Shown piece after piece: positions 1 through 64,000 of a stretch of 64,000 bases of DNA. Source of the DNA: Candidatus Omnitrophota bacterium (lineage in GTDB: Bacteria; Omnitrophota; Gorgyraeia; Duberdicusellales; 4484-171); the NCBI GenBank assembly GCA_041652815.1, contig JBAZGN010000002.1, positions 8,209-72,208 on the forward strand, given 5' to 3'. The stretch's first letter is position 1; each line of letters opens with the position of its first letter. A program made the translations under genes and the position numbers. The notes under the pieces were generated by a model that worked only from the letters and a program-made list of their open reading frames with translations, did no database searches and was not told the origin of the DNA.

Positions 1-3000
1 GTTTTACTGGTTCCGACAATTTTGCTATATTCTATTAAGCTTATCGGTAAGTTATTTATTGTTCGCGATAATTTATCTTCAGCAACTAATTTAAATACCT
101 CTGCTCCCAATCTTGAAGATCAAGTCATTCGCGTACGAGTAGCATGGATTAACCGCCACCTTTATTTAATCGCTCCTTTTAACGAATATTTGATGAATTT
201 ATATAAGCAATCACCGGAGGCGCTATTAAATAAATATTATCCCAATGGCCATGAAAAACGTGCCGACGTAGACAAGGCAAGAAAAGATATCGTAGATGAG
301 GAATCAAAAATAATATTTATTGAAGATTATTTTGTTCGCCCGATTTCCAACCTTTTCCTCGCTATCATGACTGATCAGGGTGAAAAATGGAAGAGTGATA
401 TGGAAGGTAAACGTAGCAACAATCTCCGCACTCTTATTTCAAAGAACGGTTGGCAAAAAGCAGGAACATACTTTGTTTTTACAGATAGAGATTTGAGGCG
501 CCTATTCACTATTTTTGCTGAAAAAGGAGAAGACCCGGTCACTTATTTTAATTTGAATGATCATCTTTTAGTTGAAACCGCGGAAAAAGGAATAGGGCGT
601 TTGCAGAAAAATGGCGATGCCGTAGAATTGCTGATTCAGCCATTAAGAAAATGGCTTAAGGAGCAGTATGAAGATGGCAAAAACAAAAACCAGCAAAGAG
701 TAAAGGGATTTGTGCTTTCTGCTATAGCATTATATTTTGTCCCCATAGCTTCATTTATTCTAAAAGCTTTTGGTGTAATTAGTATTCCTGTTAATCCTTG
801 GGTAATTGGCTTAGCTATTGCCATGGTATCTTTGGCGACCATTCTTTACGCAGTTGGGCTTTTATCTCAAAAATGGCTTGTGCAGCCCACCTTCCCGGTT
901 GGCTTAGAAAAGATTGTTTCAAGCCGCATTGGCAGAATTATCATAATTGCATTAGGCTTAAGCATGGGGTTAGTGCTTCATTATACTTTAGGCGTCGGGC
1001 TAAAAGGCAGCATTTTCAGCGCGGCAGTAGTTTCTTTTGTTATATATGAAATTATACAAATGCTGCCCTTTTTAAAATTCCATTTATGGGATTGGTTTAA
1101 GGCAGTATTCATTATTTGGAAAACAAGCAACAATTATGCAGGTTCGCTTTCGCAAGAAAAAATTAGCATCAAAAAACAATTCTTTTTTACTTATTTTAAA
1201 TGGCTTTTATTCTATGGCACGGTTATATTTGGAATCTGCTTATATTACGGCTGGGGCGTAATTCCTGTCTTTGGCTGGGTAATGGGAGGATTGCTAATTA
1301 CGCTTATAAGTATAAGAGAATCCGTGAGGAGCTGGTGGTATTTATTTATAGAATCAGCTTCAAGAAGCCTTGCAAGAAATCAACGCTGGGATACGTTAAA
1401 ATTATATCGAAATATCAAAAAAGAACATTTAATCAGAATCCGCAAAGATGGTTATTTTAAAGATGCATATTTAGAGATTCTTGTCAAAGAAACTCTCGAA
1501 AACTTTGATTTGGTAGACGCAGATCAAGCCGAGCAATTACGAAACGTTGTAAACAATGGTTCTTTGCCGGGCAATTTAAGCCAGCAAGCTCGCGAAGAAA
1601 TAATAAAATTTTTCAACAAAATCGAAATGGCTATCACAATGAGCGGCGGAGAAGAAAAATTCCTAGCTCGCCTTGAGCTCGATCCCGGCATAATTGTGTG
1701 TAAAGGAACAGGAAAGAAAAGGATTATCCCCAGCGTTAAATTTTTGGATGGCGAAGAATTGGACGCCTTGGCTAAAACTAAACAAAAACCGCAGAGAGTA
1801 TTAAAATCGGGATTCAGGATTTTTAAAGAAAATTTCGGCGATTCATGGATGATTTTTATTAAGGGCAGTTTATATAAGAAATTAAAAGAAATAGAAGAAA
1901 GTTTGGGAATTAATGAAATAAGTAATACAACAATTGACCAAAATACCGAAGCAAAATTATTATCCATTACGATGAGCTTGAAAGAAACAATAATAAAAGC
2001 TGCAGAGAGATTTTATGGTAACAGTTTTACCGAACAACAGAGAAGCAGAGTTGAAAAAGCCATAGTTACCGGTTGGGTTATGTATCGTGCAGACGGCTAC
2101 TTGAAAACATTACTTTTTGCCGAAAAAGCAGCTGAAGCTTCCTTGAGGGTGTATCTTAAGCATATGATTATTAAGACTCAAAATAGAATACCGACTGCCG
2201 CTGAAGTTGAACAAGAAGTTGAAAAACGCCTTATGTTTGTCCATATACATGAGGATATAGATCCTGATAAAGGCAATGAAGCCGATCCTAAAAAACAATG
2301 GGGCGGTGTGGAGCCGAAAACTCTTATTGATATATTGGGCGCGAAAGGTTATGTTGTTAATAAACACGGCCGTAAAATTATTGTTTCAACAAAAGATTAT
2401 GAGGCTAATGACGGGCAGTATAAATATCCCAAGAAAGAATCAGGAAGGTGGGTAGTAAAGACAGATAAATGGAGTATAGCCGGGCGTTTCATTGAAAAGT
2501 TTTTATTAGACCAAGAGAAAGACGATGCAACGCTGGTTAATTTGGATAGAGACCATTTCTTTTTCCCTGCCGATTATTTCTTACTGCCATTTATTGCCAG
2601 GCGCTTCATTGACGAGCCAGACTTAGGGTTTTTAACTACGCGCCTTGCTGTAAAAACCGGTGGTGTAAGCAACGTTGCCGCTAACCATAAGGTTGCAGAA
2701 GACACTTGGAACAGTTTTATATTGCCGGCAGAATCAGCGATAGGAACCCATGCGTTTTATGGACCGGGTATTGTGCGTTGGTCAGTAATGAGAATTTGGG
2801 GTGCTTACATGTCAAATATCGAAGATACAGCAGCAGCTCAGGAAGCACAGTTCCGCGGTTTCAGAGGTGAATATACACCTTGGATTTCCTGGGGCCGTCC
2901 CCGTGAAATGCTTGCGATTTCTTTGCCGGACTTCCAAAACAGATTTGGAGGCTTAGTAATGGATGAATTCTTATCAACCCATTTCCAGAAGCTGCTGCAA

Positions 3001-6000
3001 GCTGACCAATTGCATTGGACAGAAAAATTAACACTTCTTGAGAACTTTGATTTCTATTTCAACAAACCTATGATTCCCAGATATAATTTATTTGTATTTC
3101 TTTTTGCTTTCTTTTTGAATTTTACACCATTCTCCTATTTATCCTTCCCGTTATTATTTGTGGGCTTGCAGTATTTATTTGCCGAAGCAATTACCGCCGG
3201 AGGAATTAGGCTTTTTAGCACAGACAGGCACCCAGTTATGGGTTATTTTAAATATTTAAGCAGATTCTGGAGTTTAGTCTTTACTTTTGCTCCTTTGATA
3301 CCATTACACGACGAGAAGGTTCGTAACGCATTTAAGGGCAAAGCAGGGTTATTTACTTCCGGGGTTAAAGATATTGTTTATTCGATTATTCCTTTTGAAG
3401 AATTATATGAATGCTATAAGACAACAATCAAATGGGGATTGGTGCTTGCTGTAATATTATTGTTTGCGCCAGCACATCCTTACGCTGTTATCGCACAATT
3501 TTTCTTCTATATTTTCCCATTTGCTTTTATCTTTGGCCCATTCTTGAATAATGGTTATTCAAAACCGTGGTGGGCTATTACAACTCTTGCAATGCTTATA
3601 GGTGCCATGTTTGCTCCTTCAATGATTTTAACTGCAGTACTGATTGCGGGCGGTATATTAACTTTTCTTTTAGGGGTTAAAGCAGAAGAACGCTACACAA
3701 AAGGTATTTACCAAGGATTATTAGCTTCACTGTACTATACCTTAGAAGTCTTCCTGAGCTTATTTTTTATTAAGGTTGATTTCTTTGAGTGGTTAGCAGC
3801 TATGCCCGATGTTACTAAACGTAAAGATGGCGAGCCGGTAATAAAGAGTGGTAAACCGGACAATGAGATGCTTAACTTAACTCTTTTCTTTAAAGGAAAA
3901 AACCCCGGTGTTGTTGGTGGCGAGAAAGATGCTGGTAAAGGAAAAATGGTAAAATACTATGATAACCCGGCTACTAATAACAGCAGCCATAACATTTATA
4001 AGGTATTTGGGCAACTGATATTATTGACTGCGACAATAGCCGCATCTTTCGCTGCACTTTATACCGCTATAAAAGTGTTAATGATTAGCGTGGTTACATT
4101 GGCAGTTTTAAGTTTAATTGTTTATCCCGTATTGGTTTATAACGAACGATTTGCACGAAGTATGAAGGATTTCATTAAACCCATTAAAGACGATGATTTG
4201 CCTAAACAGGATGAAGTATTATCTCTTGATTACAAACTTCTCAAAATCTGGCAGTCCTTAATACCAAAAATAAATAAAGTATTTAGTTGGTCTTATCCAT
4301 TGAAAGTTATGGTATTAAGCATTGAATATGGCTTTGTTTCCATGGTTTATTTCCTCTCCATTGCATTATGGCAAAAAAGTAATAACAAAAAAATTACCAA
4401 AACTACTTATCCCGCCACCATGCCTGTTGTTAATATTCCTGATAGAAACGCTACGCAAGAAGAATTACAAATAATTATTAATGCTTTTGGTGGCAGTAAA
4501 GCATTAGCGCACAATAAAATTACTCTTAATACAAATAATACGGTAATTAGCGGTTTATTAGAATCGCCGGCAGAAGTCAGTAATGGAATTTTATTTATAA
4601 ATCCTAATACCTTACGTGGTCCACCGGAGCAGTTAAGAGTTATTTTTGAAGGACATGAATTATTCCATTTACTTAACCCGGATTTTTCAGAGGAAGCTGC
4701 ACGCCAATACACTATTGAGTATTTGTCCGCACGTAATCTTTTAGCGAGACATATTCAATTTCTGCAGAAGAATGATATTGGGCTTGTAGCGAATAGTTTT
4801 TGGATGGAACAATCAAAGATTACAAACGAACCTAAATTATCTACTAGGTTAGAGAATTTCCAGAAAGTTGAGAAAATTGAGAGAATCGCCGAAGTAGTGA
4901 TTTATATTCTAGTGATAGCATTGCTGGCTATATTTACACCTCTAAGAAATCCTGTAAATTTATTTCTCCAAATTATTGGAGTACTAGTAGTAACAAGTTT
5001 TCTTATTCATATTATTGAGAGTAGCATTAAGGAAACAATATTTGGAATTATAGAGATCCCAGCTTCTTATAGGGGAGAAGTTGGTAAAACCTATCGCGGT
5101 TCAACAGCTGAAGAATATGATGACGATGAAGACAACGATTCAGTGGATTATTCTTCAAGTCCAATAGAGTCAAACGAACCGGGCTTCTTTGGCAGGATCT
5201 GGCGGGATATGCGGATAAATTATCATATAGGGCAGTTGAGAAGTGAAAATGAAAAAATTAGACAAGCATCGGCAGATGCCTTGACCAAAATTGGCGAGCC
5301 GGCAGCAGAATTAATTATTAAAGAATTAGATACCCCTATTAATAAATGGTATAAGCCTGCAAGAAATTCCCGAAACACCCCTGTGGCGGAGTTGATAGAA
5401 ATTTTAGGAAGAATGAGAAGTCTTAGAGCTATACCTAAACGGCAATTTCAAACATTAACTAGTTTTGAATTAATTCCCCGCTATTCAACCCAGCTTCGCC
5501 TGCCTTTAACCCGTGGCCCTCCGCAAAATGCGATTACAAATAAAGATTCATCCCCAATATCTACGGTTTCGACTTTTGCTCCAAAAAGCATTAGCAATTT
5601 AATCCGCTACAGTGATTTAGAAGAGGCGTTTACTAACGAGTATGAGTGTGTTCTTGATTTAGAATTCGAGAAGAAAGATGAACGATTCTCAATTTTAGCA
5701 TTACCATTAGCAGTTAAGGTAAAAACCCCTCAAGACTACGATAGAGAAGCAAAAGAATTAGCATTTTCATGGGGCACTTCTGATAACCCGCGACATCAAT
5801 ATTTTGAAGCACTACAGCAAATAAGAGAGAAAGACAGACAGGAAGCAACTAAATACAGAACTGCCCAAAGATTTGCCGAGATACTGAATCAGGCTTTACT
5901 TACCGTTGAAGAAATAATTCATCAGCAAGGCGGAGCAGAATTCATTCGCTATTTCCAAGCTAAGTTAAATTCACCTGACAATAGAGCGCCTCCTGTCCGC

Positions 6001-9000
6001 ATTAGAGTTAATTCCAACTTACCAGTAAATTCAGCAAGATACTACAATAAAACTAAAAACGAAGTAGAAATACTTTTTAATGACAAATTTGCTCTTGAAC
6101 TTATAGGTGCATATGATACTTATAGAGAAGCAGTTATCACCATTTTTGGTGAACGTCTTTTCCATGAGCTCTGCCATACCAATAATGGCGATATAAGAGT
6201 AGCTACGGTTAACGAAGCCCGCCGCATAGAGCGCGACTATCAATTGCATAAATTGATTGTAACGAACAAAAGACAAGAAGACGTTGACCTTTTCTATAGA
6301 GAATACCACCCGTCATGTCGCTCCGGTTATTACTTCAAATTTTTAGAAGAGCTCGAAGGCCTTGATGCGCAGCAAAGGAAAATTGCGATTTTAAACTATC
6401 TTTATGCCAATTATCCCGTAGATACAGCCGCCAACCTTTCTATTATTTTAGGAAGAATAGATCTTTCCAAATATGATACAAAAGCCAAATTTGCCATCTA
6501 TTCTGGCCCTCCGGGAGGCGGCAAGGGAGCAGTATCCGAAGAATTTAATAAACTTTTTGGACGTCATATACAGAAATTTATTCTTTTCCATACCAGAGGA
6601 ATACGGCCGGGAGAACGTCAAGATGAAAACTATCATTTCCGCACGGAAGAACATTTAAGGAAATTAAAACAAGAAGGGAAAATACTCACTACTTTGATTA
6701 ACAACCAATTGCAGGGTTTAGCTGTAGAAAGTTTTACCGATACTTATGCCGATCCAGTAACTAACGAAGAAAGAACAACTGAAATTAATGGTCTCGATTC
6801 TGTTTTTAACGGATCACGAATAGTCATCCTTGAATGTGGGCTTTCCTGGTTTGAAATATTAAAAGAAAAATATCCCGATCTTTATGCAATTTTTATTTCG
6901 CCGTTCAATGATAAATATTTAAGCGAAAAATCACATAATCCTGATGCCGCTTTTGAGGCAATCGTAGGCAAGGAAATTGCTTTAAGAATACATGACCGAG
7001 AATGTAAAAATGCCAAAAAAGCCGCTGCCAAGTTTTCAGAAGAGAAAAAATTCTACATCCCTACTTCACAAGGAGAATATGTCAACCGTATCAACGAGGC
7101 GGTAACACAGGTCAAAAGAAGGCATGAATACAGAGTGAATTTAGTCAATGAATGGGTGCCGGAAGATCGTTATGAAGCAGCAATAGGTATATTAACCGAA
7201 CAATTCGCGCAAGCCATCTTCTCAAACGTGCTTACCGCAATGGAGGTTGAGTTTAATGCTGCTGATTCTGCTGAACAGCTTTCTACACGTTTAGGTACCG
7301 TTGATATAAAAGCCAAAGAAAGCCAGGCAAAATTTGTCATCTACTCCGGACCTCCGGGAGGAGGAAAAGGTGCCGTTTGGGATAAGTTCAAGAAAAGATT
7401 CGGCGAATCCAATAATAGTTACGGTGAAAATTTGCTCAATAAATTCCGTCTTTTTCATACCAGGAGCATACGACCCGGCGAAGTCCAAGATGTTGATTAC
7501 CACTTTAGAGATGCAGCGCATTTAAATAAATTACGACAAGAAGGGAAAATCATTACCGTTTTGATTAATGACCAACTACAAGGTTTGCCTTTGGTTAATT
7601 TCCACGATACCTACAAGTATCCGGATCCGGATGATCCTACGACAATTCATGAGGGCGAGTGCGATGTTGTCGGCCTTGACTCGGTATTCAAAGGTGGGCA
7701 GATAGTTCTCTTGGAAGGAGGCCTAGGCTGGTTTGAACAGTTACAACAGATGTGCGGTAAGGATATTTTTAGTATCTTTATATCACCTTTTAGCGATGGC
7801 TATTTAGAGGCGAAATCCCATGATCCAGAGGCAATGCTTGAAGCGATTGTCGGCAAGGAAATTGCATTACGTATCCATGCCAGGGAAGTAAAAGGCGCCG
7901 CATTACAAAAAGCAAATAATGAAGAAAAATTTCAACAAGGAAAAACAGATGAGATTAAACACTGGTTTCCGACGAAACACGAGGAATTTGTCAACAGGGT
8001 CAATGAGGCCGTTATCCAAATAAGAAGAAGGCATGAATACACAAAGGTATTAACCAATGAATGGGCTAACAGTCAGCAAGAATATCAACGTATCATAAGA
8101 AAGCTTACCGAAGAATTTTCACAAGCTATTTTTGGAAATCTTTATAATAACCTCAACGAAGGTTATGTTAAGGCATTCGGCGGAGTAAGCTCTCCTATTT
8201 CAGAAGAATCTTCTCCAAGCGCAAACTTTATTTCCCCCTTCTCTCCCCATAACATCGCGACTCTCATACGCTATGCAGATTTAGAAAATGGTTTCAATGA
8301 TACATATGAATGCAGTCTTGATTTGGAGAAAAAACCATTGAAGAGATTCAGAGCAATAGGCAATAAAGCTTATGATTTAGCAATGGTTTTAAACGAAGCA
8401 TTAATAGTAGTTGAAGAAATTATCTCAAAAGGCGCCGATACAGAACTTACGCGTTATTTCCAGACCAAGCTTAATATGTATTATAACCGTGGACCCCCTA
8501 TTAAGATAAGGCTCAATTCCAAATTAACAGTTAACGCCGCAAGATATTATAACAGGGTTACTAATACGGTAGAGATTATTTTAAATGAACGTTTTGCCTT
8601 GACTCTACTTGCTGCCCGTACGACTTTCCCAGAAGCTATACCAGTTATCTTTGGTGAACGCCTTTTCCATGAGCTCTGCCACACTAATAACGATGATATT
8701 AGGCTTGCCGTAGTCCATGAAGCTCACCGTATCGAAAGAGATCTTCAACTCCATCAATTAGTTGTCGCCAGCGGAAAACAAGCATTTATAGATGATTACT
8801 ACCAACAATTACATCCTGTATGGCGCTCGGGCTATTACTTTAGGTTTCTTGGTAAACTAGGTAAACTTGAAGATAAAGTTCAACGCGGGAAAGCCATAGA
8901 TGCTTATTTAAAGCGTGAATATCCCGTTATTACAGCTTCTAATCTTTCCATAACTTTAGGAAGGATAGAGCTGGGCCAGCATAACACTTCTGCCAAATTT

Positions 9001-12000
9001 GCCATCTACTCCGGGCCTCCAGGAGGAGGAAAAGGCGCTGTCTGGGAGAGATTCTCCAGTCTATTTAGCCATCAAATCGAGCGTTTTATATTATTCCATA
9101 CCCGTTCAATGCGCAGCGGAGAAGTGCAGGATGAAACTTACCATTATAGAAGCGAGGAGCATTTAAAGGCACTGGAAGCAGACGATAAAATTATAACTAC
9201 AAAAATCAACAACCAATTACAAGGTTTAGCCATAGAGACATTTACAGATACCTATATTGACCCTGAAACAAAAGAAGAAAGAACAACAACGGTAGTCGGT
9301 CTTGATACGGTATTTAACGGAGAGAAGGTAGTTGTTCTTGAATGCGGATTAGCCTGGTTTGAAGTTCTAAGCGGTAAATATCCTGACCTTTATTCTATAT
9401 TTATCTCACCATTTTCCGCTGAATATCTTGAAAAGAGTTCACATGACCCCCAAGCGGCATTTGAAGCAATCATCGGTAAAGAGATTGCTTTGAGAATTCA
9501 TAGCAGAGAATGTAAGAATGCTAAAGCAGCCGCAGACAAATTTAAAACGGATCCCCAAGCAAAACTCTACACCCCCACTCCCCAAGCAGAATATATCGAT
9601 AGAATTAAAGAAGCAGTAGAACAGGTAAGAAGGCGGCATGAATATAAACTTGTTTTAGTCAATGAATGGGTACCGGAAGATCAGTTTGAAGAAGCTATTT
9701 TAAAGCTGACCGAAGAATTTGCCAAAGGTATCTTCTCCAACCTCTTAAGAGCGTTAGAGATGCCTTTTGACGATAATGCTTCAGCAGACCAATTAGCAAT
9801 GATTCTGTCGGCAGCAGACCTTAAAACAAAATCAACTTCTGCCAAATTTGCCATATACTCCGGGCCTCCAGGAGGAGGAAAAGGCGCTGTCTGGGAGAGA
9901 TTTATCGAACATTATAGTAATGTTTATAATATCTATGGGGAGCCATTAATTGCTAGATTTAGGCTTTTCCATACCCGGGCAAAAAGGCCAGGAGAAACAC
10001 AGAATGAACATTATTACTATAGAAACGGTATTCATCTCAACAAGCTAAGAATTGAAGGTAAAATTATCACTACCTTGATTAATAATCAGCTTCAAGGATT
10101 GGCTTTAACCAGCTTCGCCGATACTTATACTGATCCCGAGACCAATCAGCAGGAACAATTTGATGTTGTCGGCCTTGACTCGGTATTCAAAGGTGGGCAG
10201 ATAGTTCTCTTGGAAGGAGGCCTAGGCTGGTTTGAACAGTTACAACAGATGTACGGTAAGGATATTTTTAGTATCTTTATATCACCCTTTAGCGATGGCT
10301 ATATTGACAGGCAGTCCAATAACCCGCAATCAGCCTTCAAAGCCATAGTAGGCAAGGAAATTGCCTTGAGAATCCATGCCCGTGAATGCAAAGATGCCAA
10401 AAAGAGAAAAGAGAATGCTGAAGTAGATAAAGAGCAGGGCAATCGTGAAGCTATAAGACTTTTCTCCCCTACGCCACAGCAGGAATTTATCAACCGGATA
10501 GAAGAAGCAGTAGAGCAAGTCGCAAGAAGAGGAGAATATAGTGATATCTTAGTAAATACTTGGGTGCATAACGAAGAAGAATTCCGTCAAGCAGTAAGGG
10601 AACTTACTGAAACATTATCTGTAAATGTCTTCTCCCATCTTTTTAATGAACTGAGAGAAGGTTATGTCAAGGCATTTGGGGGAGCGAGTTCGGCGGTGGC
10701 AACCGCGCAGCATATTATCGTAAACAGGATACTTTTCCAGAGACGGCACGATAGGGCTGAAGTGCTTGTGCATCAAGGCATAAACCCTTCTACTATAGAA
10801 AATATAGCGGGAGGCGCTATTGATTTATTATCTGAAGACGGTTTTACTAGAGCAGTTTTGACTGCAATGGGTGTTGTTGATTTTGACTCTCTTGATAAAA
10901 ATAACGAAGACATAAGCGCAATCACTATGCTTGAATCGTATCGAGATATAAATGATAGCATCGCGGCTGGCACAGTAAGCCTATTCGCATTCAGGGCAGA
11001 TATGCAGCGAGAAATCATTGATCGCTTGATCAATGATTTCAAAATGGTGGGATATAGTGGCGAATATAATGAAGCATACGTTGATGTGTATGACAACCAT
11101 GCAAGAACAACGGGCGTGGTTATGCCACGTGCGCAAGTTCATATGGATGGAGATTTGCACGCGGATGTATATGTGTTTGTGTTTAATGACGACGGGAATA
11201 TTTTGATGCAGACACGTTCTGCCCAAAAGGAGATTTATCCTTTAAAAAGAGAGGCGTCAGTGAGCGGACATAGAAGAGCTGGAGAAGACGCAAAAACAAC
11301 AGCTGTACGCTTATTAAAAAAAGAAATTGGTTTGGAAGCGCGACTGGACAACCTTGTCCAGCTTGGTACAGAAAACAGGTTAAGACGCACGGAGGATTTT
11401 AACAATAACCTTAAAGAAAGGCTTTTTACAACAGTATTTGCCTATGTTATCTCTATCAATGACACTATTACTTTTAATCCCCAGGAAGTTAAAAGTATTG
11501 AGTTTGTTAACGCGGACAAGGAATTGCGCGAGCTAAAGGCAAACAGCGATAATTACGCAAGCATAAAATACGTTTTGTCTGATAGGGAAGTAATAGATGA
11601 AATAAGAAGAATAGGTTCTGAAATCAGTGAGTATAGAATTTCCGTAGGCCAAAGAAGCAAAGACAATGAAATACTTTTTAGAATAAAAAATGTTTTTTCT
11701 ACAGATAGAATAAAAAGTGCCGCTTTCGTCACACCGGAAGCAATACCTTTTGCCAAAACCGGCGGACTAGGGGATGTCTCCGGTGAACTGCCTCAAGCTG
11801 TAGCAGAGCTTGGCATAGCAACTTATATATTTACTTTAGGTTACAACGCAATCTTTCAGAAGTATGACCTTGTCGACACCGGCATAACAATAGAAGTTGT
11901 TATTGACGGCAAGCAGGTACCGGTAAAAATTTGGACAAAACATGAGCGCAATGTTACTTACTTCTTTTTATCAGCACAAGATTATGCCAAGGTACCTTAT

Positions 12001-13146
12001 GCCGGAGATAAATTGCATCTAACATTACTTTTATCCGAAGGAACATTAAAAGCAATTGAGCAGCTTGTTGCCAGGGGTATAATTGTCAACCCGCAAATTA
12101 TACACGCTAACGATTGGCAAACAGCCTTAGTTCCAGTATTTATAAAAACAAAATACAACACGCATCCGCTTTTTACTCATACAGCGACATTATTTACAAT
12201 ACACAATCAAAAGTATAGGGCTGATTGGATCCCGGTACAAAGATTTCCAGAATTAGGTATAGGCTGGGAGCATTGGTTTGGTTTGCAACAGCCGGAAGCC
12301 CCGCAGTATTTTAGTCTTATGCGAGGCGGTATATTCCACGCTGACAAATTGAACGCTGTTTCACCTGCCAATAGAGAGGAGTTATTAACCGTTAAATACG
12401 GAGAAACATTGGTCGATTTATTTCAGGCAAGGGCGCTTGATATGGTGGGTATCATGAACGGTGTTGACTATGACGTTTGGAATCCGGCAAATATTGAAGA
12501 CAAGCCCATAGAGAAAGCTTTATTGCAGGCAAATTTAGGCTTTGAGGTAAATCCAAATATTCCGTTTATCGGTATGGTAGCAAGGATTGCCGCGCAAAAA
12601 GCCGTAGATAAAGTAGTTGCTGTTATTGGAAGATTATTAATGGAAACTAATGGTCAGCTGCAATTTGTTTTTCTCGGTAAAGGTAATCCTCAGGATCCTT
12701 ATAATAGCAAGACAATGAGCATGATGCAGAAATTAGCTTCGAATTCCCGCTGGGCGAAGAATATCAAATTTATGCATCAGTATACAACCGATGAGCAGAT
12801 AAAAGTTTTTAGAGGGATTGACATGTTTCTATATCCTTCTGAGTATGAACCGTGCGGTACCAAACCGATAGTCGCTCTTATCAATGCTGTGCCTTGTGTA
12901 GTTCGAAAAACAGGAGGTTTGGCTGATAACGTACAGGAATATAACAAATTAACTGGAGAGGGAAATGGTTTCATTTTTGAAGAAAATGCAGGCCCGGTTT
13001 TTTATGCTGCTTTAAAGAGGGCGCTTAAAACATTCAGTGATAAAACACATTGGCCTAGAGTCGTCATCAATGCACAGAGTAAAGATAGGAGTTGGACACT
13101 ACCGGCAATGGAATATATAGAATTGTATAAAGCCGCTATTTTTAAA
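1..13146 (+). CDS. Giant multidomain protein, part 1. It is 5'-partial: open from the window start in frame 1 and ending at TAA 13144-13146. Contents: a polytopic membrane region, HExxH modules, four guanylate-kinase-like domains, a Nudix/IDI-like domain and a glycogen-synthase-like domain.
   Basis: Manual frame-1 translation from nt 1 found no stop until TAA at 13144-13146 (...EYIELYKAAIF*). Every 60-nt line starts a codon, and I checked frame alignment at many line starts. The domain motifs are listed in the features below. Confidence 0.85.
706..5013 (+). other. Polytopic membrane region. It contains at least 12 hydrophobic helix-length segments, with an embedded soluble stretch at about 1320-3080.
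   Basis: Translated hydrophobic runs include GFVLSAIALYFVPIASFILKAFGVISIPVNPWVIGLAIAMVSLATILYAVGLL, FYGTVIFGICLYYGWGVIPVFGWVMGGLLITLI, WGLVLAVILLFAPAHPYAVIAQFFFYIFPFAFIFGPFL and VFGQLILLTATIAASFAALYTAIKVLMISVVTLAVLSLIVYPVLVY. Confidence 0.6.
4654..4668 (+). other. HExxH motif (HELFH), a candidate zinc-metallopeptidase-like site inside the membrane region.
   Basis: cat gaa tta ttc cat, in frame. The context is VIFEGHELFHLLNPDFSEE. Confidence 0.3.
5542..6460 (+). other. HExxH-containing domain of repeat unit 1 (HELCH at 6163-6177). It is a paralog of 8245-8980.
   Basis: ISNLIRYSDLEEAFTNEYECVLDLE...IFGERLFHELCHTNNGDIRVATVNEARRIERDYQLH. The HExxH motif is in frame. Confidence 0.4.
6475..7290 (+). 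other. Guanylate-kinase-like domain 1, with a variant P-loop GPPGGGKGA.
   Basis: KFAIYSGPPGGGKGAV (P-loop at 6505-6528), then LFHTRGIRPGERQDENYHF, which resembles the guanylate kinase TTRxPRxGExDGxDYxF motif, and AIFISPFNDKYL. Confidence 0.55.
7321..8160 (+). other. Guanylate-kinase-like domain 2.
   Basis: KFVIYSGPPGGGKGAVW (7348-7371), LFHTRSIRPGEVQDVDYHF and IFISPFSDGYLEAKSH. Confidence 0.55.
7663..7803 (+). repeat. A 141-bp near-identical tract shared between otherwise divergent guanylate-kinase-like paralogs. It looks like a gene-conversion tract.
   Basis: gatgttgtcggccttgactcggtattcaaaggtgggcagatagttctcttggaaggaggcctaggctggtttgaacagttacaacagatgtgcggtaaggatatttttagtatctttatatcaccttttagcgatggctat matches 10162-10303 (and 15118-15259) with 2 mismatches. 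Confidence 0.85.
8245..8980 (+). other. HExxH-containing domain of repeat unit 2 (HELCH at 8668-8682).
   Basis: IATLIRYADLENGFNDTYECSLDLE...IFGERLFHELCHTNNDDIRLAVVHEAHRIERDLQLH. Confidence 0.4.
8986..9810 (+). other. Guanylate-kinase-like domain 3.
   Basis: KFAIYSGPPGGGKGAVWERF (P-loop at 9013-9036) and LFHTRSMRSGEVQDETYHY. Confidence 0.55.
9835..10695 (+). other. Guanylate-kinase-like domain 4.
   Basis: KFAIYSGPPGGGKGAVWERFIEH (9862-9885) and LFHTRAKRPGETQNEHYYY. Confidence 0.55.
11080..11490 (+). other. Nudix-fold domain resembling type-1 isopentenyl-diphosphate isomerase (IDI).
   Basis: GDLHADVYVFVFNDDGNILMQTRSAQKEIYPLKREASVSGH resembles the IDI-1 pattern LHRAFSVFLFN..G.LLLQ.R...K.TFPG...CSHP. 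A degenerate Nudix box follows: GHRRAGEDAKTTAVRLLKKEIGL. Confidence 0.55.
11716..13143 (+). other. Glycogen/starch synthase-like glycosyltransferase domain (GT5, GlgA-like). It is the last domain before the TAA.
   Basis: AAFVTPEAIPFAKTGGLGDVSGELP carries the KTGGL motif (11755-11778). The C-terminal FLYPSEYEPCGTKPIVALINAVPCVVRKTGGLADNV resembles the GlgA pattern PSRFEPCGL....G..P.VR.TGGLADTV. Confidence 0.75.
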
Positions 13147-13163
13147 AAAACAGGCAATATTTC

Positions 13164-15658
13164 TTCTTCTCCAAGCGCAAACTTTATTTCCCCCTTCTCT
13201 CCCCATAACATCGCGACTCTCATACGCTATGCAGATTTAGAAAATGGTTTCAATGATACATATGAATGCAGTCTTGATTTGGAGAAAAAACCATTGAAGA
13301 GATTCAGAGCAATAGGCAATAAAGCTTATGATTTAGCAATGGTTTTAAACGAAGCATTAATAGTAGTTGAAGAAATTATCTCAAAAGGCGCCGATACAGA
13401 ACTTACGCGTTATTTCCAGACCAAGCTTAATATGTATTATAACCGTGGACCCCCTATTAAGATAAGGCTCAATTCCAAATTAACAGTTAACGCCGCAAGA
13501 TATTATAACAGGGTTACTAATACGGTAGAGATTATTTTAAATGAACGTTTTGCCTTGACTCTACTTGCTGCCCGTACGACTTTCCCAGAAGCTATACCAG
13601 TTATCTTTGGTGAACGCCTTTTCCATGAGCTCTGCCACACTAATAACGATGATATTAGGCTTGCCGTAGTCCATGAAGCTCACCGTATCGAAAGAGATCT
13701 TCAACTCCATCAATTAGTTGTCGCCAGCGGAAAACAAGCATTTATAGATGATTACTACCAACAATTACATCCTGTATGGCGCTCGGGCTATTACTTTAGG
13801 TTTCTTGGTAAACTAGGTAAACTTGAAGATAAAGTTCAACGCGGGAAAGCCATAGATGCTTATTTAAAGCGTGAATATCCCGTTATTACAGCTTCTAATC
13901 TTTCCATAACTTTAGGAAGGATAGAGCTGGGCCAGCATAACACTTCTGCCAAATTTGCCATCTACTCCGGGCCTCCAGGAGGAGGAAAAGGCGCTGTCTG
14001 GGAGAGATTCTCCAGTCTATTTAGCCATCAAATCGAGCGTTTTATATTATTCCATACCCGTTCAATGCGCAGCGGAGAAGTGCAGGATGAAACTTACCAT
14101 TATAGAAGCGAGGAGCATTTAAAGGCACTGGAAGCAGACGATAAAATTATAACTACAAAAATCAACAACCAATTACAAGGTTTAGCCATAGAGACATTTA
14201 CAGATACCTATATTGACCCTGAAACAAAAGAAGAAAGAACAACAACGGTAGTCGGTCTTGATACGGTATTTAACGGAGAGAAGGTAGTTGTTCTTGAATG
14301 CGGATTAGCCTGGTTTGAAGTTCTAAGCGGTAAATATCCTGACCTTTATTCTATATTTATCTCACCATTTTCCGCTGAATATCTTGAAAAGAGTTCACAT
14401 GACCCCCAAGCGGCATTTGAAGCAATCATCGGTAAAGAGATTGCTTTGAGAATTCATAGCAGAGAATGTAAGAATGCTAAAGCAGCCGCAGACAAATTTA
14501 AAACGGATCCCCAAGCAAAACTCTACACCCCCACTCCCCAAGCAGAATATATCGATAGAATTAAAGAAGCAGTAGAACAGGTAAGAAGGCGGCATGAATA
14601 TAAACTTGTTTTAGTCAATGAATGGGTACCGGAAGATCAGTTTGAAGAAGCTATTTTAAAGCTGACCGAAGAATTTGCCAAAGGTATCTTCTCCAACCTC
14701 TTAAGAGCGTTAGAGATGCCTTTTGACGATAATGCTTCAGCAGACCAATTAGCAATGATTCTGTCGGCAGCAGACCTTAAAACAAAATCAACTTCTGCCA
14801 AATTTGCCATATACTCCGGGCCTCCAGGAGGAGGAAAAGGCGCTGTCTGGGAGAGATTTATCGAACATTATAGTAATGTTTATAATATCTATGGGGAGCC
14901 ATTAATTGCTAGATTTAGGCTTTTCCATACCCGGGCAAAAAGGCCAGGAGAAACACAGAATGAACATTATTACTATAGAAACGGTATTCATCTCAACAAG
15001 CTAAGAATTGAAGGTAAAATTATCACTACCTTGATTAATAATCAGCTTCAAGGATTGGCTTTAACCAGCTTCGCCGATACTTATACTGATCCCGAGACCA
15101 ATCAGCAGGAACAATTTGATGTTGTCGGCCTTGACTCGGTATTCAAAGGTGGGCAGATAGTTCTCTTGGAAGGAGGCCTAGGCTGGTTTGAACAGTTACA
15201 ACAGATGTACGGTAAGGATATTTTTAGTATCTTTATATCACCCTTTAGCGATGGCTATATTGACAGGCAGTCCAATAACCCGCAATCAGCCTTCAAAGCC
15301 ATAGTAGGCAAGGAAATTGCCTTGAGAATCCATGCCCGTGAATGCAAAGATGCCAAAAAGAGAAAAGAGAATGCTGAAGTAGATAAAGAGCAGGGCAATC
15401 GTGAAGCTATAAGACTTTTCTCCCCTACGCCACAGCAGGAATTTATCAACCGGATAGAAGAAGCAGTAGAGCAAGTCGCAAGAAGAGGAGAATATAGTGA
15501 TATCTTAGTAAATACTTGGGTGCATAACGAAGAAGAATTCCGTCAAGCAGTAAGGGAACTTACTGAAACATTATCTGTAAATGTCTTCTCCCATCTTTTT
15601 AATGAACTGAGAGAAGGTTATGTCAAGGCATTTGGGGGAGCGAGTTCGGCGGTGGCAA
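13164..15658 (+). repeat. Segmental duplication, copy A-prime. It contains guanylate-kinase-like domains 5 and 6 (P-loops at about 13969 and 14818) and HELCH at 13624-13638.
   Basis: Identical to 8207-10702. It starts in frame 2 and is restored to frame 1 by a 1-nt shorter run: cttctcccccat here versus cttctctccccat in copy A. The preceding TAA at 13144 is the only in-frame stop in the window. Confidence 0.9.
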
Positions 15659-18600
15659 AAGGCAAAGATTTTGACATCATTGTTCGATTTTTTGATGGTG
15701 ACCAAGATGCGACCTTTGCCGCATTAAGAAACTGGCAGCGTGAATTCAAAGAGATTCTGGGACAAGATAGAACTATGGTGCAACTCACTACTTTCAAAGA
15801 CGATAAGCATCCCGATGGCACAGAATATTTCCGTGTTACAGACGAGAACGGAAACTATACAGGAGAAATTCGTCCTCGTGATCTTTGCCATATTGATGGC
15901 ACTTGGCACAGAAGCGTATTTATGATTTTAATTGATAAAGAAGGGCGAATGTTAGTTCAGATAAGGTCTGACAATAAAAAGTTTTTTCCTGGTTGCCGTG
16001 ATACTTCTGCCAGCGGTCATTTAGGTCTTACAGAAGATTATATCGATGGAGCGATCAATGAAACTCAGGAAGAAGTATTTAATTCCCAGCTTAAGCTAGA
16101 TAGGGCAAGGATAATACAAATCGGCGGAGATTCTTTTCTTACCGTAGTTCATTCGTATCCCGATAATAAGCTTAATGATCGGGAACGCTCATCTTTATTT
16201 GTATATATTGTTAATAATGAAGAAAAATCAAGAATTGAGAAGCAAGAAAGTGAGGTTAAAGCTCTTGAATGGGTAGATTTGGAAGAAGAATTGTCCTATC
16301 TTGATTTTTGGATGAAACATCATAATGAGGCTGCCCGTAACGGTCTAGATTATGCTGCCTTGGGAATTGATATATTATCTAATCAAGCAATTGTGGCTAA
16401 GCTGCGAAATATAATAAAAGATAAAGCTATCGGAAGAAATAGTTTAGACGATAGCAGCTCTTCCTCGATTTCTACAAAACCGCTATGGCGTGTTCAGATG
16501 GAAAAGCATACTAGACGAATATTTGCATGGGTTTGCGAACGCGAGGTTATCCCCCGGGATTATGATCTTCTTTGGGTATTAGGATCAGCATCAGTCCGTG
16601 TTGCGGTAGAAGCCGCAAATCAATGGAAGAGAAAACCAACAAAAGTCCTTATTACTGGTGGCATTGGCCGTGAAAGTGTCACCTTTAATCAAGTAAGTAG
16701 TGGGGATTTTTCTCAGGAGGCATTAAGGGCGATAGACGATACTTTAGATCGGTTATTTCGTTTAAGAAGCGCAAAAGTTGCGGCAATTTTCTGGCAAGAA
16801 ATATACAGAAGGTCCGGCATTAAAAACGGTAAAGACAGAGAAAAAATAGCTAATCCAAAAATTATGAAAACAATACGACAAATTGCTAAAAATGGTGATT
16901 TCGTAGGAAGTAGTTCACCGGTTGAAATAAAAAGACCAGAAAAAATAATAATATGGCCAAACGATAAGGAGGCCGCTTATGGTGAGCTTGTTGGCGGTAA
17001 AGGCAAGAGTTTAACCGAATTGGCGCAGGTAGTCGATGTACCAGAAGCTTTTTTTATCAGTACCGAGGCATACAGATATTTTATTGTAGTAAATTATATC
17101 AACAGACTAATCAATGAATTAGATGTGTTATCTCATGCTTGGATCCTATCAAAATTACAAAGCGAGTTAAGAATTAGCAATAAAAATAGCGAAAACGAAG
17201 AGGAGCTTCGTAATCGCATTGAAAGTAAATCAAAGAAAATTAGACAGGTAATTCAGAGTGCAGAATTCCCTATTTTTATTGTTGAAAGCATAACATCCGC
17301 ATATAAAACTTTATCCGTACAATTTAACCAAGACGATTTAGCTGTTGCAGTTAGATCTTCGGCAACATCTGAAGATCAAGCGGGTATGTCTGCAGCCGGT
17401 CAACACGATACGTATCTTAATCAGAAAAACATAACGCAAATCCTGGTTGCCACTAAAGGTTGTTGGGCTTCACTTTTTAACGACAGGGCCGTTGATTACC
17501 GCAATAAGCAAGCGTTTTCTAAGCTTATAAGAAAATATAGAACAAACGAAACAGTAAAGCTAGAAAAAAATATGTCTGGTATTCCTCTCCATGCAGCGGT
17601 AAATATGTGTACGGTCGTGCAAAGAATTATAGAACCTAAAGTTTCAGGAATTGGTTTTAACGTTGACCCCGTAAATGGTCAAAAAGTTATACGTCTTAGC
17701 GTCAATTATGGTTTTGGTGAGTCAATTGTTGCTGGTAATATTACACCGGAAGCATGGTGGATTGATGCTGAGGAGGATAAGATTATTGGATGGAGAATTG
17801 GTTCCAAAGTTGAAAAGATTATAAAAGGAAGGGACAGTGGAATAGTTTCTATACGAACATCAGAAGCAGAATCCAAGACATTTGCTTTAAGGGACGAACA
17901 AGTTCTAGAAACAGCACGGGCAATTCGTAAGATTGCAAGGCATTATGCGTATACGCAAGGCATAAAGCGAATTGATACAGAATATCTTTTTGATGAAAAT
18001 GATAGGCTTTATTTTGTCCAAACTCGTCCAGAAACAGCTTTCGAACAGAGAGATATGAAATTTACGGTTTCTCCCGATGCTATTCAGGATATTGACAATG
18101 TAACTCTCAATGGAATAGTTGCTAGTTTAGGCTCTGCTATAGGAAGATTAAACATTGTTAGGCATCCCAGTGAGGTAAATGATGGAGATGTGGTGGTTAC
18201 TTTTGCAACAAATCCTGATTGGGCTTTAAGTATGGGCAGGGCAAGAGCGGTTATTACGGACAGAGGTGATGATTTGTGTCATGCTGCTATAGTGAGTAGG
18301 GAATTGAATTTCCCATGCATAGTCGGAACAGGTAAGGCTACTGATTCTTTACAAAAATATCAGGGAGAAATTGTAACGCTTGATACATTTAGGCGCATGC
18401 TTTTTAAGGGTGCATTACCTCTCATTGAAAAAACAACCAAGGGTAGCATAGAAGACAAAATCGTTACTGTAAAAACTATAAAAGAAACTATAACTGAGGA
18501 TATTGATGAAATTAGGGCACGCGGACGAAGCATATTTGATGCAATAGGAATCGAATGGCACGGAAGGCCACCACATTATGTACCAACACTTCAAAGAGAT

Positions 18601-21600
18601 TTGATGGTTGAATCATACCAAACGGTAGGACAAATGTTTAATTGTCAGTTTAGAACAATGGTTAAAGACGGTATTGTCTATGTTCGGATAAGCGATAATT
18701 TTAATCCACGCTACGTTTTAGAGGCAATTTCTTTAGAAGATTTTGAGAAGTTGATGGCTTCAAGAGATGAAAATGTCGAAGAATTATTACGATTTATGGA
18801 ACATTTTACTTTTACTCCAGAAAATTTAAGAAAATTCAGAAAGCTTTATATTTTATTCATTGCTTATATGTCAATATCCCGAGAGCTGAGAACTCTTACC
18901 CAGAGAATGCTTGTTGAGCCATTTAATAGAATACCTTCTTTTTTAAAGGAAACAATCTTAACAGCAGCAGCGCAACAATTTCCGCTAACCTCTCTTGACG
19001 CGATAAAAGAGTACGAAGGAATTCTTTATGAAGCAAGAGGGTTGTTGCAGTTATTCTTGGAAAATGAGCCTATCACGGTTAGTACTTTACTTGATGAGTC
19101 CAACCCATTATTATCGCAAAAAATTAAAACATACATAAGTAAGTATAAACATCGCGGCATGAAGGCTGATATACAAGTTGCACCTCCGATAGATGACTTT
19201 TTTGAACACATTAAATCAGATTTACTAGAGAAGGCTCCGCGATTCGAAGAAAGAAGGTTAAGCCTTGAACTCGAACTTGAAAAAACTAAGGACTATTTTG
19301 AGAACGATACAGAATTTCAAGAATTTAAGCATAAAGTAGTATTAGGTGCAGCTGCAGCAGTACAAATGGAAAATGAACACCATTATAAAGCCCGTATACA
19401 TTTCAAAATAAGAGAAGAACTTATAAAATTTGCAAATCATATGATGGGGCTAGGCATAATTGATAGCCAAAATGATGTTTTCGAAATTCCCATTGAAAAT
19501 ATTATTTTGCTGGCAGAAGAGAGTTCTTCTCCGTTGCAACTTCCGGTTGAGATCGAAAAAGAATATTTAACGAGAGTAACGCATCTTGCTAGAACCGGCA
19601 TAATTAATCCCGATATAGTTAAGCAGGTTGAATTTTCAATGCGTAGTGAAGAACTTAATATGTATTTTATTGCCATGCAAAGTATTCTCTCTGCTGAAGT
19701 TAAAACCAAAATTACAGCCGAAGTTGCATTTAAAGCTGCTCAAAGAACTCTTGGGAGTAGGCAATCACATGTGAAAGCTAACATAGGTCTTCACCCGGGC
19801 ACAATGAATCCACTTACCTACGGGCATATTATCGAAGATTTAGGAGTAATTTTGGATAAGCGTCTTGACGCAGTAGTTATTGCGGTTGGAGGAAATGTGC
19901 CAGATAAGCCTTTTGCGCCTGCGCATTCATTACGTAGGGAAATGACCGAAGCGGGTATAAATAGTGCAGACCATTTAGGCAACTATATATTTGTAACTTC
20001 TATACGAGAACAAATTGCTAATATATTTGTTTCCAATAATGCGTTGGCTTTTGTAGGCGAAAGCCCCGAAGAACGCAGGTTAAATATGGATATTGCGGCA
20101 TTTGCATGGCTTTTTGCGGCCTATCCTTTTGTGCATTGGCTCTATATTATAGGTGAAGATAAGCTTATCGATTATGGAAGAAAAAAGGAAGTTGAACTTT
20201 TACAAAATACTCTTTACAGGGTAGGCGCCAATATAGTTTATTTCTTGCGTAAGGCTCATGGGGGTTTTTCTTATGATGAGCATATTAAACCTTTTCCTTG
20301 GTTAAGGGCTCTTTGGGATGAAGGAATATTTATCAAATGTACGATTCCTTACATTGATTATATCTCATCTACTATAGTACGGAAAGCTTTCGCTGGCTCG
20401 ACAGAAGCTATAGAAGGATTATTTTTTAGCGAGGTAATTCCGCAAGGTGTGATTGATTTTATACAGGCTCGACCATTTCTTGCCAAATTATATTTGATAG
20501 AGCACTTAATTAATGAGGCAAGGCATTTTGCCGATGAAGGAAACTTTGACGGTGCAAAGAATAGATATACACAAGCTTTAAATATTATTAATACTTTAGA
20601 TAGTGCTAATATAAATATCTCTGGAGTAGATTTATTTGGTTTAAGAAAAATGATAATTACTGAAATGTTCAAGATAGAAGATACAGTTAATGATAATCTT
20701 TCGAATGGGGATATGGTGTCTTCAGCCTCAACAAATCCTATGTGGCGCATTGAGGTGAGAAGAAATATACTTAACATATTAGGTTTGATTTATGAACATA
20801 ATAATATTAAAGCAAAATCTTCAAACCATATTAATTTAAGGTTTGGAGATTATGAACAGAAAAGGAACAGAAAGAATAGTAACGCAAATTCACCCGTATC
20901 TTTTACGCAACAGGCGATAGCTGATATTAAAAATGCAAGAGAAGCGGCTCGACAAAAATTAGGGATATCTTATGCGATACCGATAATTTTATACGGTAGT
21001 TATTCTAAGAGGAGCCAAAGAGCCGGATCTGATTTAGATATATCTGTTGTGTATGGAGATATGCCATTTAGCGGTAGATTTAAAAAAATACAAAAAGCAT
21101 ATGAATTTGCTGATGTTTTTCATGGGGAATTACGCGGGCTGGGATATTATATTGATTCAACGCACGATTTTCTTTTGGTAGAAAGCTTGGATGAATTTGT
21201 CAGAGCGCGCTATATAGATACATTAGCTGCTTTAAAGAAAGTAATTCTAATAACAAAAAATAGTGTCGAGTTAGTTGATATCAATCGGGTAGTTGCATTA
21301 GTAAGATTAGCGCATTTTGGAAGTCAAGAGATTGGTGGTAATCTCGCAAGCTTAATCTCTTCGCGCAGTTACCCATTCAATGGGCTCACCGATCAAGAAC
21401 ACCAATTATTAACCAAAGGATTAACGCGGCAAGGACTATTGGAAATAACCAGTTCGCCGGCACAAGCTGCCAGTCGGTCATTTAAATATCCCGTTGTTTT
21501 TGACCCCAGAACCCAGCAAATAGGAAGATATCGCATGCAATTTGAGACAGAAGTAAATGTAAAAGTTGAGCGGGGCAAAGTAGCGATTATCAATCATCCA

Positions 21601-63999: not shown

Positions 64000-64000
64000 G

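Follow-up and report, generated by a model that had tools for sequence, protein, structure and literature searches.

Repeated enzyme-like modules within a giant open reading frame of an Omnitrophota genome, and their nested history

What is encoded by, and what gave rise to, a set of repeated coding units that occupies positions 5542-16300 of a 64,000-nucleotide (nt) stretch from a Candidatus Omnitrophota bacterium (assembly GCA_041652815.1, contig JBAZGN010000002.1, positions 8,209 to 72,208 of the forward strand; this whole stretch is hereafter called the window)? Each of the three units starts with a domain bearing an HExxH motif and continues with two guanylate-kinase-like (GK-like) domains, and two of the three are followed by a Nudix domain resembling type 1 isopentenyl diphosphate (IPP) isomerase (IDI). 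The reading favoured here, to which we assign a probability of roughly 0.75, is that the array represents internal module repeats in a single gene of at least 64 kb, that this gene encodes a membrane-anchored multi-enzyme protein of the type known from Omnitrophota, and that the repeats carry a nested history.

The first part of the question is settled by the reading frame. A six-frame stop count indicated that frame +1 of the + strand is free of stops over all 64,000 nt (21,333 codons); the other five frames contain 766-2009 stops each, and no open reading frame (ORF) longer than 159 amino acids (aa) is present in the window besides the giant one. Because frame +1 is uninterrupted through the whole window, the units are modules of one giant protein and not genes. 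Separate paralogous genes, which an earlier note on this DNA had implicitly assumed in describing a tandem array, are ruled out by these same counts, and the units belong instead to one ORF of at least 64 kb. The principal features are as follows, where SSP denotes the tripeptide Ser-Ser-Pro, and GK-a and GK-b denote the first and second GK-like domain of a unit.

1..64000, + strand: giant-ORF fragment, frame 1, 21,333 codons, zero stops, open at both window ends
7..5016 (aa 3-1672), + strand: approximately 15 hydrophobic, transmembrane-like segments (Kyte-Doolittle), just upstream of the array
5542-8205, + strand: unit 1, HExxH head followed by two guanylate-kinase-like P-loop domains
5548..6477 (aa 1850-2159), + strand: HExxH (zincin-like) head of unit 1, starting at an SSP; HELCH at 6163-6177
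6424..8202 (aa 2142-2422 and 2423-2734), + strand: tandem GK-like domains of unit 1; P-loops at 6505-6528 and 7348-7371
8209..10702, + strand: unit 2, copy 1 of the perfect repeat, starting exactly at an SSP tripeptide
aa 2737-2995, + strand: HExxH head of unit 2; HELCH at 8668-8682
aa 2978-3262 and aa 3261-3567, + strand: GK-a and GK-b of unit 2
10978..11700 (aa 3660-3900; Pfam NUDIX aa 3719-3846), + strand: Nudix 1, IDI/YfcD-like
11722..13026 (aa 3908-4342), + strand: GT5 + GT1, glycogen/starch-synthase-like (Pfam), spacer between the perfect-repeat copies
13165..15658, + strand: unit 3, copy 2 of the perfect repeat, offset 4,956 nt = 1,652 codons
aa 4389-4647, + strand: HExxH head of unit 3; HELCH at 13624-13638
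aa 4630-4914 and aa 4913-5219, + strand: GK-a and GK-b of unit 3
15709..16503 (aa 5237-5501; Pfam NUDIX ~aa 5303-5430), + strand: Nudix 2, YfcD/IDI-like
16984..18387 (aa 5662-6129), + strand: PPDK_N + PEP-utilizers mobile domain (Pfam), after Nudix 2

Hydrophobic segments were located by a Kyte-Doolittle hydropathy scan (19-aa window, threshold 1.6), which is not a topology predictor. After aa 1672 the same scan found some 18,600 aa (to about aa 20,300) that are nearly without hydrophobic segments.

The repeat structure itself was resolved by chunked self-BLASTP. Unit 1 (aa 1955-2734) is collinear at 45-77% identity with both later units (aa 2790-3567 in unit 2, aa 4442-5220 in unit 3), and the match between units 2 and 3 (aa 2737-3570 against aa 4389-5222) stands at 96-100%. 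Two sub-repeats of ~280 aa within each unit are 50-60% identical, and the Nudix regions (aa 3660-3871 and aa 5237-5471) are 28-35% identical. A three-way alignment places the same start (LIRYxDLE..F...YEC.LDLE) and the motif FGERLFHELCHTNN in units 1-3; each unit carries two P-loops of the form YSGPPGGGKGAV, and the array holds six GPPGGGKG P-loops. The module of ~830-890 aa is built from a head of ~255 aa, a first GK-like domain of ~285 aa that is fused directly to the head, and the second GK-like domain; the head of unit 1 carries a 52-aa insertion relative to unit 2, and the C-terminal end of that unit reads GGVSSPISEE. These collinear diagonals and the alignment bear out much of what the earlier note had described: the shared order of HExxH, GK-like and GK-like domains; the collinear protein-level similarity of 5542-8205 with 8207-10702; the status of units 1 and 2 as diverged paralogs with the same start motif (60% aa identity, with the motif present in all three units); the identity of unit 3 with unit 2; and the presence after each of units 2 and 3 of an IDI-like Nudix domain (two Pfam NUDIX matches), the two being mutually diverged.

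The youngest layer of the array is the pair formed by units 2 and 3. The sequences at 8209-10702 and 13165-15658 show zero mismatches over 2,494 nt, and directly outside the repeat nucleotide identity falls to ~25-30%, the chance level. One explanation holds that this identity is a product of assembly, in which similar paralogs were collapsed, a repeat was traversed twice, or a graph loop was miscounted. Identity of exactly 100% over that length, knife-sharp edges and a simple loop layout of repeat (R) and spacer (X), in-R-X-R-out, would all fit such an origin, as would the same pattern, with a perfect repeat of 2,899 nt, in another, SPAdes-named contig; yet the frame remains open through all four junctions with an offset of whole codons (4,956 = 1,652 x 3), the repeat is bounded on both sides by module limits (SSP at its start, the close of GK-b at its end), a graph loop would still need R-to-X and X-to-R junctions in reads and hence at least two real copies of R, and independent, shorter conversion patches show that the locus homogenises. 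An assembly product is judged unlikely.

That contig (CAZCLW010000001.1; locus L023) carries an unrelated giant ORF. Its perfect direct repeat (5837-8735 and 9974-12872, offset 4,137 nt) starts at the N-terminus of an HExxH head that precedes a CofD-like domain, carries that CofD-like domain, and is separated from its copy by a spacer at whose end stands a Nudix domain; this locus and the window have the R-X-R layout in common. Either a biological process that recurs or an assembly behaviour that recurs would explain the repeat in L023.

Older layers are legible in the comparison of the GK-like domains. GK-a and GK-b are 56% identical, below the identity of domains of the same type across units (67% for GK-a, 59% for GK-b), and the duplication of the GK-like domain is therefore older than that of the unit; with units 2 and 3 identical, this gradient sustains the nested duplication proposed from the first inspection of the sequence. 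Between units 1 and 2, pN is 0.26 and pS is 0.75 (saturated), with dN/dS of ~0.06-0.16, and all unit copies are under strong purifying selection. In a distance tree, units 1 and 2 cluster with sequences P0001, P0002 and L006_U (P and L are our labels for protein fragments and loci of relatives) at similar distances, so that the split between the two units appears about as old as their divergence from those relatives.

Superimposed on these layers are short, near-identical patches that show what appears to be gene conversion active at the locus. One of ~130 nt in GK-b (7657-7790 in unit 1 against 10156-10290 in unit 2; the unit 3 counterpart, by the 4,956-nt offset, is 15112-15246) reaches 96-98% nt identity with a 91-nt exact run, and its codons are 97-100% identical, against a background of ~60% nt identity and ~45-50% identical codons among conserved residues. 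A second patch covers a P-loop:

8986..9053, + strand: P-loop patch, 67/68 nt identical to 9835-9902 (GK-a against GK-b of unit 2); the pair recurs in unit 3

The Nudix domains bear on a further explanation, that of the earlier note, in which a super-unit of ~5 kb was duplicated in tandem and its unit segments alone were subsequently homogenised. The spacing of the identical copies by 4,956 nt, the Nudix domain after each copy and the occurrence of homogenisation all suit that model. Nudix 1, however, is 40-42% identical to its counterpart in locus L006 and Nudix 2 is 46% identical to that of L017, while the two are only 29% identical to one another. Since each has a closer relative in another genome, they are, by this comparison, old paralogs, as opposed to leftovers of a recent duplicate that escaped homogenisation. 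The segment after Nudix 1 (GT5/GT1) bears no relation to that after Nudix 2 (PPDK), a Nudix domain is missing from unit 1, tandem duplication would yield R-X-R-X and not the observed U1-R-X-R-Y, and neither stops nor starts lie between the units. A duplicated 5-kb super-unit was rejected for these reasons, and the model as a whole is very unlikely; its homogenisation component is real, as the near-identical patches attest, and its super-unit component fails.

The history that we favour instead would comprise three steps: (i) an ancient duplication of one GK-like domain into a GK-GK pair, which is present in all close relatives; (ii) an ancient unit duplication that gave units 1 and 2, both kept by selection; and (iii) a very recent event, after which unit 3 matched unit 2 at every one of 2,494 nt and whose most likely cause is gene conversion within the gene, or ectopic recombination, at a site where an HExxH-headed module was already present. 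Locus L006, the closest relative, is collinear with the window through the unit, the Nudix domain and GT5/GT1, and then has an HExxH domain. Because that domain occupies the same place after GT5/GT1, an HExxH-headed module was probably present at the unit 3 position beforehand, to be overwritten later or kept homogenised. Long-term concerted evolution and a single replacement or insertion would both fit the present sequence.

A related explanation dispenses with a resident module: unit 3 would have arisen when unit 2 was recently duplicated and the copy inserted, through illegitimate recombination, where two modules meet. Flanks without residual homology on both sides agree with this, RecA-type conversion between modules of 30-60% identity is improbable, and the perfect duplication in L023 of an HExxH-headed module with other cargo (CofD-like) looks as if the module had been copied whole. 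Set against it are the HExxH domain that L006 already has at this position, and the order HExxH-GK-GK-Nudix kept in relatives, which implies that Nudix 2 probably always had such a head; moreover, no microhomology or target-site duplication was seen at the repeat junctions. Insertion of this kind is judged less likely than not, and overwriting or homogenisation of a resident module remains the preferred account.

Identical long repeats maintained by concerted evolution are found in large bacterial surface proteins of the Rib/alpha-C family and of the Ebh type. The window resembles these systems in that module-sized repeats are identical at the DNA level, probably via intragenic recombination, with edges at domain boundaries; it differs from them in that the copies are not adjacent, being separated by 2.46 kb of unrelated sequence, and in that the modules are enzyme-like and not adhesin folds.

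Turning to the modules themselves, the GK-like domains share with guanylate kinase (Gmk; PF00625 / TIGR03263) the P-loop signature of the nucleoside monophosphate (NMP) kinase fold and a phosphate- or NMP-binding motif. Their N-terminal 70 residues align with Staphylococcus aureus GMK, including the GxxGxGKG P-loop and the TR..R.GE...Y.F motif, as does a C-terminal helix (R..EA..E....Y..V.VN), and a 5,000-aa segment holding several copies passes the Pfam Guanylate_kin threshold (63.8 bits against 25.2). They differ from Gmk in length (~285 aa, not ~190), in an insertion of ~60 aa in the core or lid region, in the lack of conservation of the guanine-reading residues (E69 and the Y78-G-T region), and in always forming a tandem pair fused to an HExxH domain.

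Both Nudix domains pass the PF00293 gathering score (39.3 and 35.2 bits against 21.1), and their closest matches among solved structures and NCBIfam models are type 1 IPP isomerase and YfcD. The Nudix box of Nudix 1 reads GHRRAGEDAKTTAVRLLKKEIG; compared with Gx5Ex7REUxEExGU, it keeps the G, an E, the R and one further E, and the other two Glu residues are Leu and Lys. Such a degenerate box resembles that of IDI and departs from those of canonical hydrolases. The IDI pair E114/E116 is not aligned in these domains, and, in contrast to IDI and YfcD, they are domains within a giant protein and not free enzymes.

The HExxH head appears, from its sequence and its model, to be an uncatalogued domain family. 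A total of 89 cluster representatives were recovered among 1.84 billion proteins, every one of them inside a long protein, and the head matched no Pfam, NCBIfam or PDB entry at the sequence level; its weak single-member Pfam matches (Peptidase_M91, DUF4344, SprT-like, Aminopep and YbeY) are all HExxH families. The signature R..HExxH...E......D is invariant in a 30-sequence alignment, and across the wider family R151, H154, E155, H158, E171 and D178 are kept in 81-89 of ~90 domains (H154 in 86/91, E155 in 87/90, H158 in 89/90, E171 in 85/87, D178 in 81/87). An AlphaFold2 model (predicted local distance difference test score, 87.6) displays beta-strands, a helix ending in HExxH, and a next helix that bears E171. 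The head is thus similar to zincin or gluzincin metallohydrolases of minimal type (M48/M56, SprT-like, DUF45-type), which place HExxH at the end of a helix after a small beta-sheet, and its conserved Glu (and Asp) on the following helix is a candidate third metal ligand; it differs from them in lacking any Pfam, NCBIfam or PDB match or significant structural match, and in being confined to very long proteins.

Several results weigh against the overall reading. The GK-like domains score only 49.0 and 26.5 bits against the TIGR03263 equivalog cut-off of 160.45, and a true guanylate kinase was rejected on that cut-off and on the missing guanine-reading residues. Nudix 1 and 2 reach 67.2 and 40.9 bits against the IDI cut-off of 127 (NF002995 / TIGR02150), and both copies have Ser (ASVSGH and TSASGH) where IDI has its catalytic Cys67; a true type 1 IPP isomerase was rejected on these two grounds. 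A Foldseek search of PDB with the HExxH model returned no significant solved zincin (best E = 0.13, TM-score at most 0.2). Where relatives have 300 aa or more beyond an HExxH domain, GK-like domains come next in only 7/59 cases, which weakens a nucleotide-specific role for the head. As for the history, the HExxH domain after GT5/GT1 in L006 is not followed by GK domains, so that positional orthology with unit 3 is partial; the identity of units 2 and 3 is known from the assembly alone, and assemblers can collapse near-identical copies; and conversion normally needs high prior identity, which makes a one-off conversion onto a module of 30-60% identity unlikely and implies either that the copies have long co-evolved or that the event was a replacement or insertion. 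Finally, no taxonomic marker gene lies within the 64-kb window.

The distribution of relatives speaks to the generality of the cassette. Only five homologues of unit 2 were found among 5.8 billion proteins, all of them fragments with at most 61% identity, and the named ones come from Omnitrophota metagenome-assembled genomes (MAGs). Scans of genome and metagenome collections did not recover the window itself, and the metagenome scan returned a single distant locus. Local hidden Markov models for the three domain types recovered the order HExxH-GK-(GK)-Nudix in P0009, P0010, P0011, L002, L005, L006 and L007, and in L002 and L007 two consecutive units stand ahead of the Nudix domain, as in the window; HExxH-GK-GK-Nudix typically seems to recur as a cassette in close relatives. 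In L006, identity to unit 3 amounts to 53-68% for the main unit and to 31-34% for the HExxH domain that follows GT5/GT1. Beyond this close circle, 28 loci in species-representative genomes carry the HExxH domain; most are from Omnitrophota MAGs, some are labelled Planctomycetales or Planctomycetia, one Auribacterota and one Actinomycetes, and in most of them the ORF spans the entire locus. Behind 28 other HExxH domains, the next 380 aa are for the most part dark to Pfam, with single cases of HTH_3, HEAT and TPR. A general partner for the head was rejected, as none of these 28 stretches revealed a nucleotide-specific association.

Omnitrophota commonly carry giant ORFs of more than 20 kb (Seymour 2023, PMC10066038). 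In two more recent studies, 'Archaeovorins' are described in which GT5, GT1, NUDIX, PPDK_N, HATPase_c, HAD_2 and AAA_5 are among the commonest domains (West-Roberts et al. 2023, bioRxiv 10.1101/2023.11.21.568195), and class 1 'multi-enzyme metabolic clusters' are reported to reach 147,155 aa, with 65% of long proteins repeating a Pfam domain and repeats that are generally old, their nucleotide tandems having dissolved (Nielsen & Lui 2026, bioRxiv 10.64898/2026.06.07.730766). The window resembles these proteins in being a single ORF of tens of kb, within the lengths of more than 20 kb or at least 10,000-30,000 aa by which they are recognised; in holding the characteristic set of GT5, GT1, NUDIX, PPDK_N, HATPase_c, HAD, AAA_5-type P-loops and ROK/sugar kinases; and in its cluster of transmembrane-like segments, its repetition of a Pfam domain in one polypeptide, and its relatives from Omnitrophota MAGs (the nearest relatives being such MAGs together with others labelled Planctomycetales/Planctomycetia). 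Specifically, Pfam recognised in frame +1 Guanylate_kin, two NUDIX domains, Glyco_transf_5 + Glycos_transf_1, PPDK_N + PEP-utilizers, HATPase_c, AAA_5, PFK, ROK + PfkB, PK + PK_C, a canonical guanylate kinase, Metallophos, HAD and Ribul_P_3_epim; the Glyco_transf_5 + Glycos_transf_1 pair occurs twice. No SecA DEAD-like domain and no C39 or S8 peptidase domain was found by Pfam within the window, beyond which the ORF continues. In three respects the locus differs from what the two bioRxiv papers describe: guanylate-kinase-like domains receive no mention in either, neither the HExxH head family nor the HExxH-GK-GK-Nudix cassette was found in the passages and terms searched there, and, set against the view of old repeats, one 2.5-kb module pair here is identical at the nucleotide level.

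Since catalytic-type residues are conserved and selection is purifying, we infer that each unit is an active module. The cassette would then be a predicted block for handling nucleotides or phospho-metabolites, in which the P-loop kinases would transfer phosphate to a substrate other than GMP, the Nudix domain would bind or hydrolyse a diphosphate-linked compound, and the zincin-like head would be a putative metal-dependent hydrolase. The neighbouring modules (PPDK, PFK, PK, sugar kinases, glycosyltransferases (GTs), RPE and HAD phosphatases) need ATP, ADP-sugars or sugar phosphates, and such needs suggest that nucleotides are present in the compartment towards which the long soluble stretch is turned, and that this stretch acts as a metabolic assembly on a scaffold; the published description of the multi-enzyme class agrees with this.

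As giant Omnitrophota genes had already been described, and internal domain repeats are the rule there, the array in itself is unsurprising. What the locus adds is a conserved cassette (HExxH head, two NMP-kinase-like domains and IDI-like Nudix domain), a domain family that has a confident model but is absent from Pfam and has no PDB match, and direct evidence of continued copying or homogenisation of giant-gene modules at the DNA level, over 2.5 kb and ~130 nt here and over 2.9 kb in the unrelated L023. Such recent copying or homogenisation would qualify the published view that all repeats are old, and the fact that duplicated segments start and end exactly at module boundaries supports growth of giant genes by building blocks.

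The starts of many modules are marked by a short motif. The tripeptide SSP occurs 58 times in frame +1, against 4.0 +/- 2.0 in shuffled sequences (maximum 11 in 1,000; z = 27), and is the most over-represented tripeptide; its consensus is [A/G]-[S/A/T]-S-S-P-[L/I/V/A]-[S/A]. An SSP often stands 0-40 residues ahead of the first strand of an enzyme module: 10 of 17 independent domain starts have one within the preceding 40 aa (binomial p = 8e-6), and the modules so preceded include PFK, PK, the second GT5, guanylate kinase, Metallophos, HAD, RPE, PPDK (SSP at aa 5638, nt 16912-16920) and the HExxH heads. Examples in the downstream part of the window are:

31270 (aa 10424), + strand: SSP
33523 (aa 11175), + strand: SSP
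50821 (aa 16941), + strand: SSP
53905 (aa 17969), + strand: SSP
57034 (aa 19012), + strand: SSP
60091 (aa 20031), + strand: SSP
61294 (aa 20432), + strand: SSP

Units 2 and 3 end in GGASSAVA, which aligns to an SSP at the same junction of GK-b and Nudix domain in the relative P0004, and no SSP occurs inside the block of unit 2, Nudix 1 and GT5/GT1 (1,652 aa) or inside that of unit 3 and Nudix 2 (1,249 aa). The motif is not a general trait of relatives, among which 34 were observed against 30 expected over 187,666 aa; enrichment there is limited to L029/P0046 (25 against 2.0 expected) and P0004 (4 against 0.07). The motif of L029 (Omnitrophota MAG contig JBDRAN010000035.1) is of the type A-SSP-[A/G]. 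A different relative, the 3,005-aa fragment P0031, has a motif of its own, G-[T/A]-K-SFPAG-[E/K], which occurs eight times between aa 192 and 2965 (0.3 expected), with two copies directly at the C-terminal edge of HExxH domains.

A fixed DNA motif was rejected as the basis of SSP, as many codon combinations are in use. The codons are nonetheless clustered by region along the ORF, in the following order:

aa 7151-11862 (nt ~21451-35586), + strand: AGY-TCN-CCN
aa 12768-16941 (nt ~38302-50823), + strand: TCA-AGC-CCN, often GCC TCC TCA AGC CCN
aa 19338-21324 (nt ~58012-63972), + strand: TCT-TCN-CCN

Identical Ser-Ser codon pairs are shared by 11 adjacent SSP sites, where permutations give 3.8 +/- 1.8 (p = 0.0007). 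The clustering, for which regional Ser codon usage does not account, suggests either shared descent of local linkers or a constraint at the nucleotide level.

The SSP motif is a candidate cleavage site, a candidate site of O-glycosylation or phosphorylation, or a plain linker, and as a delimiter it can be tested as a candidate for the sites at which giant proteins are processed or linked. The boldest form of this idea would make the giant protein a punctuated polyprotein, in which SSP marks the sites of processing into discrete enzymes or multi-domain products; other lineages would use delimiters of their own (such as G-T-K-SFPAG-E in P0031), maturation could be the work of the HExxH heads or of some other peptidase embedded in the chain, and the duplicated unit would be one SSP-delimited product. 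We hold this to be improbable. Information on cleavage points is said to be lacking for giant proteins by West-Roberts et al. (2023, bioRxiv 10.1101/2023.11.21.568195), and no mention of linkers or SSP-like motifs was found in searching that paper and Nielsen & Lui 2026; if the polyprotein idea were true, SSP delimiters would provide the cleavage-point map that the former calls missing.

Downstream of the array, positions 29401-64000 encode a string of central-metabolism enzymes of stand-alone type:

aa ~10437, + strand: PFK (Pfam)
aa ~14221-14695, + strand: ROK + PfkB (Pfam)
aa ~14971, + strand: Trypsin_2-like, a weak match
aa ~16453-16933, + strand: pyruvate kinase + PK_C (Pfam), with the second GT5/GT1 directly after it
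aa ~17980, + strand: canonical guanylate kinase, P-loop GPSGVGKS (Pfam)
aa ~19016, + strand: Metallophos (Pfam)
aa ~20042, + strand: HAD (Pfam)
aa ~20448, + strand: ribulose-phosphate 3-epimerase, RPE (Pfam)

Between the HAD and RPE modules, at 60973-61188 (aa 20325-20396), lies a pair of strongly hydrophobic segments, the sole clear transmembrane-like pair beyond aa 1672 in the window, and a possible point of return of the chain into the membrane. Searches of the window for RNA genes, tRNAs and short tandem repeats found none. Three further pairs of similar segments were observed outside the array. The 60-aa segment (DISIREYVTGVWKEASSPASQRLAPFFDKYGI...) at 29464-29643 is repeated at 35350-35529 (offset 5,886 nt) with 91-92% aa identity and exact runs of 72 and 52 nt; it is centred on an SSP site in dissimilar surroundings, and looks like another short conversion or duplication patch. 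A 75-aa stretch around GASSPLTE[H/Y]Q is 44% identical between 24859-25083 and 33073-33306, and a 75-nt stretch that encodes ...RQAIADI.NAREA.RQKY is 84% identical between 20885-20959 and 23021-23095.

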